This document shows, piece after piece, positions 40,317 through 41,035 of a stretch of 64,000 nt of DNA. Position numbers and translations under genes: made by a program. The first letter of the stretch is position 1. Each line of letters begins with the position of its first letter. Under the pieces are notes generated by a model. That model was not told the origin of the DNA. It saw only the letters and a list, made by a program, of their open reading frames with translations, and made no database searches. The stretch comes from Candidatus Bathyarchaeia archaeon (GTDB lineage: Archaea; Thermoproteota; Bathyarchaeia; Bathyarchaeales; Bathycorpusculaceae). The stretch lies in NCBI GenBank assembly GCA_038727135.1, contig JAVYWL010000001.1, positions 576,001 to 640,000 on the forward strand, given 5' to 3'.

Positions 40317-41035
40317 TTAGAGTTTATGACCATAACGCCCCGTTAAAGGCACAAAAGCCACGCCACCCAAATTCTCACGCGTGATTTTCCCATCAGCGCC
40401 TTTTACAACTTTTATCAGGCTTTGGAAGAGATGCATGCTTCCAACTGGAATGAGCATTATTCCGCCGTTTTTTAGCTGTTCAATTAGAGGTTTTGGTATG
40501 TCTGGGGCTGCTGCTGTGACAACTATTCTGTCGTATGGCGCTTTTTCCGGGTATCCTATGGACCCATCTCCGCAGATTATTGTTACTCGGTCGCTGTATC
40601 CCGCTTTCATAATGTTTCTTCTTGCAAATTCCGCTAGTCCTTCAATTATTTCGACCGTGTAGACGTGTCCCCACTCGCTTCTGGGCGCTTCGCTTGGCGC
40701 CACAATTTCAGCTATTGTGGCGGCATGCCATCCTGAACCCGCTCCAACTTCTAGGACTTTGTTGCCTACTTCCAATTGGAGGGCTTCATTCATTATTGCA
40801 ACCATGTTTCGCCTAGCCCGGGCGGGAAGCCGAGGCTATGTGGCGCTGAAACCGTCTGCCCAAAGCCGATTGGAAGAGGCGTGTCAACGGCACTGTAGGG
40901 CTGCATGTTTTCTGGCAGAAACTTTGTTCGGGGCACCTTGCGCATCGCTTTAATTACTTTTTGGGAGCGAAGTACACCCTCTCTTATTAGACTCTCAATT
41001 AGTCGTTCCCAGTCCCTCTCCAAATTTTGCACCAT
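40317..41035 (-). CDS. pcm: Protein-L-isoaspartate O-methyltransferase, interrupted by a 32-nt putative intron (exons 41035-40840 and 40807-40317; 228 aa spliced)
   Basis: [13 protein letters not shown]..., [30 protein letters not shown]....PVG, FVPL.G split across two frames. Confidence 0.93.
40808..40839 (-). other. Putative bulge-helix-bulge intron in pcm pre-mRNA
   Basis: Central helix CGCC/GGCG, bulges ACA and AAA, inner helix UAGCCU/GGGCUA, outer G-C; canonical cuts give CCA CAC ATG (P-H-M) in frame. Confidence 0.88.

Follow-up and report, generated by a model that had tools for sequence, protein, structure and literature searches.

A probable bulge-helix-bulge intron in the coding region of the protein-repair gene pcm of a Bathyarchaeia archaeon

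The pcm locus and its 32-nt insert

The stretch of DNA analysed here, in the following called the window, comprises 64,000 nucleotides (nt) of Candidatus Bathyarchaeia archaeon (contig JAVYWL010000001.1, positions 576,001 to 640,000). Its minus strand carries pcm, the gene for protein-L-isoaspartate O-methyltransferase, which is interrupted by 32 nt that we take, with a probability of roughly 0.9, to be an archaeal bulge-helix-bulge (BHB) intron inside the coding sequence. The gene appears as two open reading frames (ORFs) that abut in the Pfam PCMT profile. The ORF at 40793..41059 matches profile positions 4-62 and the ORF at 40317..40805 matches positions 61-208, the latter with E = 3.7e-46. 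The 32-nt stretch breaks the frame within the SAPHM motif. Exon 1, as delimited by the ORF and the profile match, lies at 40840..41059 and ends with C40840, which begins the His codon of SAPHM. Exon 2 (40317..40807) opens with AC, which completes this codon, continues with the ATG of SAPHM and ends at the stop codon. Between them lies the intron read from the sequence (40808..40839), whose first base, A40839, is the third of the 5' bulge and whose last base, A40808, is the second of the 3' bulge.

Written as RNA of the minus strand, the region has the order UUCAG, CGCC (40845-40842), ACA (40841-40839), a hairpin (40838-40814), GGCG (40813-40810), AAA (40809-40807) and CAUGG. The CGCC belongs to exon 1, where it lies over the Ala and Pro codons, and its partner in the central helix is the GGCG within the intron. 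ACA forms the bulge of the 5' splice site, with a predicted cut between C40840 and A40839, and AAA that of the 3' splice site, with a predicted cut between A40808 and A40807. The 25-nt hairpin consists of the inner helix UAGCCU/GGGCUA, a C-C mismatch, the helix GGC/GCC and a UUCCC loop. On the outer side, the helix in the window sequence is a single pair, G40846-C40806. The insert is rich in G+C (22 of its 32 nt), compared with 44-45% for the genome.

If the insert is excised by the rule that places each cut behind the second bulge base, GCG CCA C and AC AUG GUU are joined, which reads A-P-H-M-V, and the predicted spliced junction is CCACACATGG. The product would have 228 amino acids (aa) with the ATG at 41035 as start codon and 236 aa with that at 41059, while the unspliced frame runs into a stop after 14 extra codons past the break. 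The original prediction, made from the letters of this window, had given the coordinates, the anatomy, the length of 32 nt, the 22/32 G+C, the 228-aa product and a stop after about 14 codons, and all of these were confirmed on the sequence.

Inserts at the same codon in related genomes

The 40 nearest genomes and the source genome were searched with the Pfam PCMT profile. A pcm orthologue was detected in 39 of these 41 genomes; the other two gave paralog-level matches only. Of the 39, 32 have the gene broken at this codon, among them all 13 congeners, and the remaining seven have it intact. Adding 80 loci from species-representative genomes and 17 loci that were chosen for having the insert gave a total of 136 loci, with the insert present in 116 and lacking in 20. 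As some genomes were reached by two routes, the number of distinct sequences is the count that matters, and this is 97 with the insert and 16 without it. One intronless locus (L109), which the parser did not match and which was read by eye, stands outside these 16.

Among the 97 distinct inserts, lengths of 21, 22, 23, 26, 28-32, 34, 35, 40 and 57 nt occur. In every one of them the central helix is fully paired (4/4), both bulges are exactly 3 nt long, and the tRNA cutting rule restores SAPHM. Keeping the insert would block translation in 97/97 cases, by a frameshift in 84 and by an in-frame stop in 13, and without splicing the conserved His would be read as Leu or Gln in 10 of the 97. The 5' bulge is ACA in 88 sequences, TCT in five, ACT in three and TCA in one; the 3' bulge is AAA in 70, AGA in 15, ATA in six, ACA in four and TTA in two. 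The first three inner pairs are formed throughout (97/97), each with three to five pair types, and the consecutive inner stem measures 3-12 base pairs (bp). The longest intron, of 57 nt, is found in locus L127 (genome G049); it keeps the frame but contains a TAA, and it has a long GC-rich hairpin.

Covariation was analysed in a MAFFT alignment, A1, of 79 distinct sequences. The BHB structure left 96.8% of the cells paired, compared with 13-43% when the 3' partners were slid by 1-3 columns. Changes on both sides were seen in 7 of 11 pairs overall and in all six inner pairs, and none of 500 shuffles reached the observed covariation score. The original prediction had named, as a check, inserts in relatives at the same codon with compensatory changes, and the 97 distinct inserts with both-sided changes in 7/11 pairs are what this check brought to light. 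The second pair of the central helix, which joins an exon base to an intron base, is G-C in 87, A-U in seven and G-U in three of the 97 sequences, with the third base of the Ala codon on the exon side. This codon is GCG (90) or GCA (7) in the 97 sequences with the intron, whereas those without it use GCA (7), GCT (4), GCG (4) and GCC (1). Because the third base is restricted to G or A only in the intron-bearing genes, the intron places a constraint on a synonymous site of the exon.

The relatives that lack the insert carry the predicted junction, CCNCACATGG. Compared with the intact pcm of an intronless relative, exon 1 shows 76% identity (residues 5-63) and exon 2 shows 82%. The ratio of nonsynonymous to synonymous substitution rates (dN/dS), calculated against congeners and members of other genera with unsaturated dS, lies between 0.06 and 0.17 in exon 1 and between 0.03 and 0.06 in exon 2. 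Judged by these ratios, both pcm exons are under purifying selection.

Proposed splicing and competing explanations

Two paralogs of the splicing endonuclease EndA (185 and 186 aa; PF01974, E = 4e-30 and 8e-26) and one match to the RtcB family (PF01139, E = 1e-180) were found in the source genome. The two EndA genes lie on contig C1, at about 491.4-492.0 kb and 298.9-299.5 kb. The first EndA paralog aligns end to end with the crenarchaeal chains 2cv8_A (E = 3.5e-45) and 3p1z_B and keeps the active-site Tyr, His and Lys, and the second has Ala at the aligned position of the catalytic His. The enzyme is probably composed of a catalytic and a structural subunit, as in the (alpha-beta)2 type. Relaxed motifs outside tRNA require an EndA of broad specificity, either (alpha-beta)2 or epsilon2. 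Heteromeric EndA is reported to accept relaxed motifs outside tRNA (PMC2738675, PMC5829648, PMC12397907).

The intron limits that ARAGORN gives for tRNAs of the same genome (tRNA-Lys(UUU), tRNA-Leu(CAA) and others) agree with a 4-bp helix and 3-nt bulges (UAA/AAA, UAA/AGA), with the anticodon stem as an outer helix of 5-6 bp. Those at position 37/38 place the cuts after the second bulge base, in the same register as in pcm. ARAGORN also predicted a tRNA-Lys(UUU) with a 1682-nt intron (C1 691032-692807), a tRNA-Gln(UUG) with a 1939-nt intron (C2 272992-275024) and a 'tRNA-Pyl' with a 105-nt intron (C3 63018-63199); these three may be genuine large introns or artefacts of ARAGORN. A second protein gene, cbf5 (contig C2, 128162-128182, minus strand, outside the window), contains a 21-nt in-frame insert that brings a TAA to the catalytic Asp codon. 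This insert can form a CCCU/GGGG helix with AGA and AAA bulges, and its excision yields GTLDPNVTG.

The proposed course of events is as follows. In the pre-mRNA, the CGCC of the exon would pair with the GGCG of the intron to give the 4-bp central helix. The stable intron hairpin would stack on one side of this helix and a single G-C pair (rarely two or three pairs) would close the other, whereby the two 3-nt bulges, ACA and AAA, are presented. EndA would cut after the second base of each bulge, and RtcB would join the exons to GCG CCA CAC AUG (A-P-H-M), restoring an intact enzyme of 228 or 236 aa; the 32-nt intron is probably freed as a circle. The processing of the pcm mRNA by EndA and RtcB had already been put forward in the original prediction, and it is supported by the geometry in 97/97 sequences, the covariation, the relatives with CCNCACATGG, the selection on both exons, the presence of EndA and RtcB, and the register shared with the tRNA and cbf5 introns. 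From these comparisons we consider splicing of the pcm mRNA very probable, and we infer the cleavage, ligation and circularisation of the intron.

Several observations weigh against this interpretation. The minimum free energy (MFE) fold of the single sequence has -20.5 kcal/mol, with z = -0.95, and 35 of 200 shuffles fold at least as well. In ViennaRNA, the BHB conformer with closed bulges has -16.6 kcal/mol with the outer G-C pair and -19.6 without it, so that closing this single pair costs 3 kcal/mol in the model. As the 3' bulge is closed only by G40846-C40806, the 3' splice site is weakly structured. The relatives present a similar picture: the outer helix is 1 bp long in 76 of the 97 sequences, 2 bp in 19 and 3 bp in two, and with 1-3 bp the 3' site is no thermodynamically closed bulge. 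The strict hBHBh' motif has stable flanking helices on both sides, and given its short outer helix the pcm motif is better called relaxed. The term 'canonical' used in the original prediction is too strong for a motif with so short an outer helix. The heteromeric nature of EndA, moreover, is itself read from sequence.

There is also a competing structure. GUUUC in exon 1 (40848-40852) can pair with GAAAC (40806-40810), a stretch made up of the final base of the helix, the 3' bulge and the opening bases of exon 2, so that the 3' splice site would be masked; the MFE fold uses this pairing in place of the closed 3' bulge. The competing helix can be formed in most sequences, with 93.7% of the cells paired. 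However, it shows no covariation beyond conservation in the 79 sequences, 49 of 500 shuffles pair as well, and its one variable pair is unpaired in 17 of the 79. We have therefore rejected it as a conserved structure.

Among the sequencing reads, run X1 gave one contig of depth 9.75 that leaves out 32 nt between 40806 and 40839, which, with 1 nt of placement freedom, is the predicted junction; insert-bearing contigs of the same run have depths of 21.6 and 6.9. Although labelled metatranscriptomic, the run bears the flag 'probably DNA'; the joint has 26 nt on its shorter side and the likeness threshold was 90%, so the skipping contig may be DNA of an intronless relative. The exon sequence flanking the junction is highly conserved, and such DNA could therefore match. 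We regard this contig as weak support for splicing. From the RNA runs X3, X4 and X5 nothing aligned to the stretch, with about 3 of 100 reads of X4 and X5 covered. Another X1 contig has a loose end at 40813, where it turns, within the intron, into a different hairpin, with the CGCC and UCU frame kept (read by eye on the minus strand); it is probably the allele of the same intron in a relative from the same community.

A lone sequence is, moreover, of limited value in this question. Bare BHB-like patterns, defined as a 4-bp helix, 3-nt bulges and an inner stem of at least 5 bp within 20-60 nt, number 13,727 in the 1.55-Mb genome, compared with 12,938 for a decoy with parallel pairing. Since both the fold and the motif of the single sequence are near chance, the case rests on the position of the motif and on the comparison with relatives. 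On these comparative grounds the motif is far above chance, through its exact coincidence with the break in the gene and through its conservation with covariation in the relatives.

A last point on the opposing side is that exon 2 always opens with ACAUG and that its AUG is preceded by GGCGA or GGUGA. The latter resembles an archaeal Shine-Dalgarno sequence (ribosome-binding site), and the C-terminal ORF is an open frame of 162 aa from that AUG. This would fit an unspliced split gene, in which the N-terminal part is terminated by the insert, which also provides a ribosome-binding site and the conserved AUG for separate translation of the C-terminal part, and in which the two polypeptides assemble into the active enzyme. 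We hold this to be highly improbable, although it is the alternative that survives best. It leaves unexplained the exact 3-nt bulges and the 4-bp exon-intron helix with its compensatory change from G-C to A-U, the insert-dependent synonymous constraint in exon 1, and the restoration of SAPHM by the tRNA rule in 97/97 sequences. Ten of the 97 sequences would yield an N-terminal part with SAPL or SAPQ at its end, without the conserved His, and the break lies midway in the most conserved motif of the family.

Still less credible is that ribosomes hop over the insert or shift frame in it, as in the bypass of phage T4 gene 60, which would make RNA processing dispensable. Translational bypass elements have a hairpin after the break and a nearby stop codon in common, and both features are present in pcm, where a stable hairpin directly adjoins the break and a stop codon follows shortly in many variants. 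However, the take-off and landing codons do not match: CAU or CAC (CUN or CAG in 10/97) stands before the gap, and AAC, GAC, UAC or CAC, in another frame, before the downstream AUG. The gap varies from 21 to 57 nt and yet the BHB register is invariant, and bypass would not predict covariation of a helix between exon and intron. An assembly artefact or a decaying pseudogene, as which a 32-nt frame-breaking insert seen in one genome might well be taken, is refuted for practical purposes by the insert at the same codon in 116 loci of independent assemblies, by the insert-bearing contigs in run X1 and by dN/dS values of 0.03-0.17 in both exons.

With the inserts in pcm and cbf5, the source genome has at least two introns in protein genes if both are read as above. 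We scanned it for BHB patterns that, once removed, leave two open frames of at least 60 codons each fused into one. This gave 705 matches versus 671 for the parallel-pairing decoy, which means that the scan is without power at that stringency. A stricter version (GC-rich helix, at most 60 nt, A-N-A as the 3' bulge) gave five real matches versus one for the decoy. Two of the five are pcm and cbf5, and the candidates at C1 636069-636097, C1 301307-301365 and C2 108437-108462 were discarded as ordinary gene boundaries or non-coding frames. The suggestion in the original prediction that other genes that look broken may hide such introns was therefore borne out once, in cbf5, and the scan, which is blind to introns whose inner stems are weak or whose exons are short, brought no further convincing case.

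The neighbours of pcm in the window are CDC48, FEN1, a pyridoxal phosphate (PLP) enzyme, GlmS, MetE-like genes, a helix-turn-helix (HTH) protein and GNAT genes. Homing endonucleases and mobile elements were not found near pcm, and an ORF would not fit into so short an intron. One tRNA-Met was the sole match of the Rfam and tRNA scans of the window. At 43113-45296 on the minus strand, two neighbouring ORFs (384 and 340 aa) each match domains of cobalamin-independent methionine synthase; they are probably a pair of MetE-like paralogs, not a split gene.

Distribution, precedents and significance

The intron was found in 10 of the 11 pcm-bearing families of the order. Elsewhere in the class, among the matches listed (150 of 356), pcm is intact in most genomes; the class-wide best E-values served only to choose cases for inspection. 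Introns at the same site occur in two families belonging to two other orders of the class, f20 with 57 nt and f35 with 21-26 nt in three genera. Two other picks with an apparently 'split' pcm, G268 and G093, turned out to be truncations at contig ends.

A pattern search over 401 genomes of the phylum revealed inserts with the same frame and co-varying hairpins in four families outside the class (8 of 8 genomes in f47, three in f58, two in f62 and one in f45), and all eight f47 genomes have a CACC/GGUG helix. Ten of the 14 matches outside the class were inspected, and all ten are pcm. The other pattern matches in the phylum resemble chance, and the control with the reversed pattern also yields scattered matches.

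When 114 distinct C-terminal parts (98 with intron, 16 without) were placed on a quick maximum-likelihood tree, intron presence changed eight times, whereas 1000 label shuffles on that tree gave 12-16 changes and none as low as eight. In this unrooted tree, intronless clades are nested among intron-bearing ones. The nesting and the small number of changes suggest an old pcm intron that has been inherited vertically and precisely lost several times. Given a sample weighted towards loci with the insert, labels common to relatives and an unrooted tree, pcm may also have moved between lineages with the intron inside.

Within the same family, genus g30 is peculiar. Three of its genomes (G076, G189 and G350; 2.4-2.9 Mb, 97-100% complete) are without pcm and have only paralogous methyltransferases, and in the class sample 33 of 40 g30 genomes have no match at E <= 1e-35 among the matches listed. 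Extra introns as the reason for the missing matches were rejected, as the gene is absent in 3/3 genomes inspected.

Our literature search found nothing on a pcm intron, and the archaeal BHB cases in mRNA that it found were cbf5 and HVO_1309 only; supplements and subscription journals lay outside its coverage. The pre-mRNA of cbf5 carries introns of 16-44 nt in Desulfurococcales and Sulfolobales, whose splicing was shown experimentally and which are described as ancestral, with subsequent precise losses in several lineages (Watanabe 2002; Yoshinari 2006; Yokobori 2009, PMC2738675). These introns resemble that of pcm in that they are short, of the BHB type, situated in coding sequence at a highly conserved motif and often relaxed in structure. 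They occur in lineages with hetero-oligomeric EndA, which the pcm host probably has as well, and their history of ancestral presence and precise losses probably holds for pcm too. The differences are that cbf5 encodes an RNA-modifying enzyme and pcm a protein-repair methyltransferase, that the hosts are Desulfurococcales and Sulfolobales in the one case and Bathyarchaeia and four other families of the phylum in the other, and that splicing has been shown by experiment for cbf5 and is proposed from sequence comparison for pcm.

HVO_1309 of Haloferax volcanii has a BHB intron in its 5' untranslated region, and its mRNA is cut by the splicing endonuclease (Schwarz 2020, PMC7714728; PMC10485636). 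As in pcm, the BHB substrate is an mRNA and not a tRNA or rRNA. The intron of this euryarchaeon, however, resides in an untranslated leader, meets a homodimeric EndA and leaves the reading frame unbroken, whereas that of pcm breaks a codon. A review of 2023 considers it probable that more archaeal mRNA introns await discovery (PMC10485636).

With archaeal pre-tRNA introns, as checked on the tRNAs of the source genome, the pcm intron shares the 4-bp helix, the two 3-nt bulges, the cut register and the A-rich bulges. In the pre-tRNAs, the outer helix is strong (the anticodon stem of 5-6 bp) and the inner one often weak, whereas in pcm the inner helix is strong, the outer one has 1-3 bp and the exons are protein-coding. 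Marck and Grosjean (2003) are said to have described archaeal pre-tRNA introns in both hBHBh' and relaxed forms.

One may speculate that splicing of pcm is a gate that ties the output of the protein-repair enzyme to the activity of EndA and RtcB, the pair that serves RNA repair and tRNA splicing, with a 3' site that can be masked by the GUUUC/GAAAC pairing as a switch sensitive to temperature or stress. Such an arrangement would parallel, in an archaeon, the unfolded-protein response of eukaryotes, where XBP1/HAC1 mRNA undergoes IRE1/RtcB splicing. We consider such a gate unlikely. If it did exist, the survival of the intron across several classes, despite easy and repeated loss, would be due to selection and not to inertia.

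In the literature covered, the pcm intron would be the second case in a coding region beside cbf5, and its comparative support is unusually deep, with about 100 sequence variants, an exon-intron helix that restricts a synonymous position of a codon, and probable repeated precise losses. As a compact natural substrate of about 60 nt, the pcm region may be useful for defining what heteromeric EndA requires outside the body of a tRNA. Gene callers would give pcm as two fragments or as a pseudogene in most genomes of this kind, so that inferences on the metabolism and completeness of metagenome-assembled genomes (MAGs) would be affected. If the inserts are introns as we propose, the phenomenon extends from Sulfolobales and Desulfurococcales to Bathyarchaeia and other lineages of the phylum.

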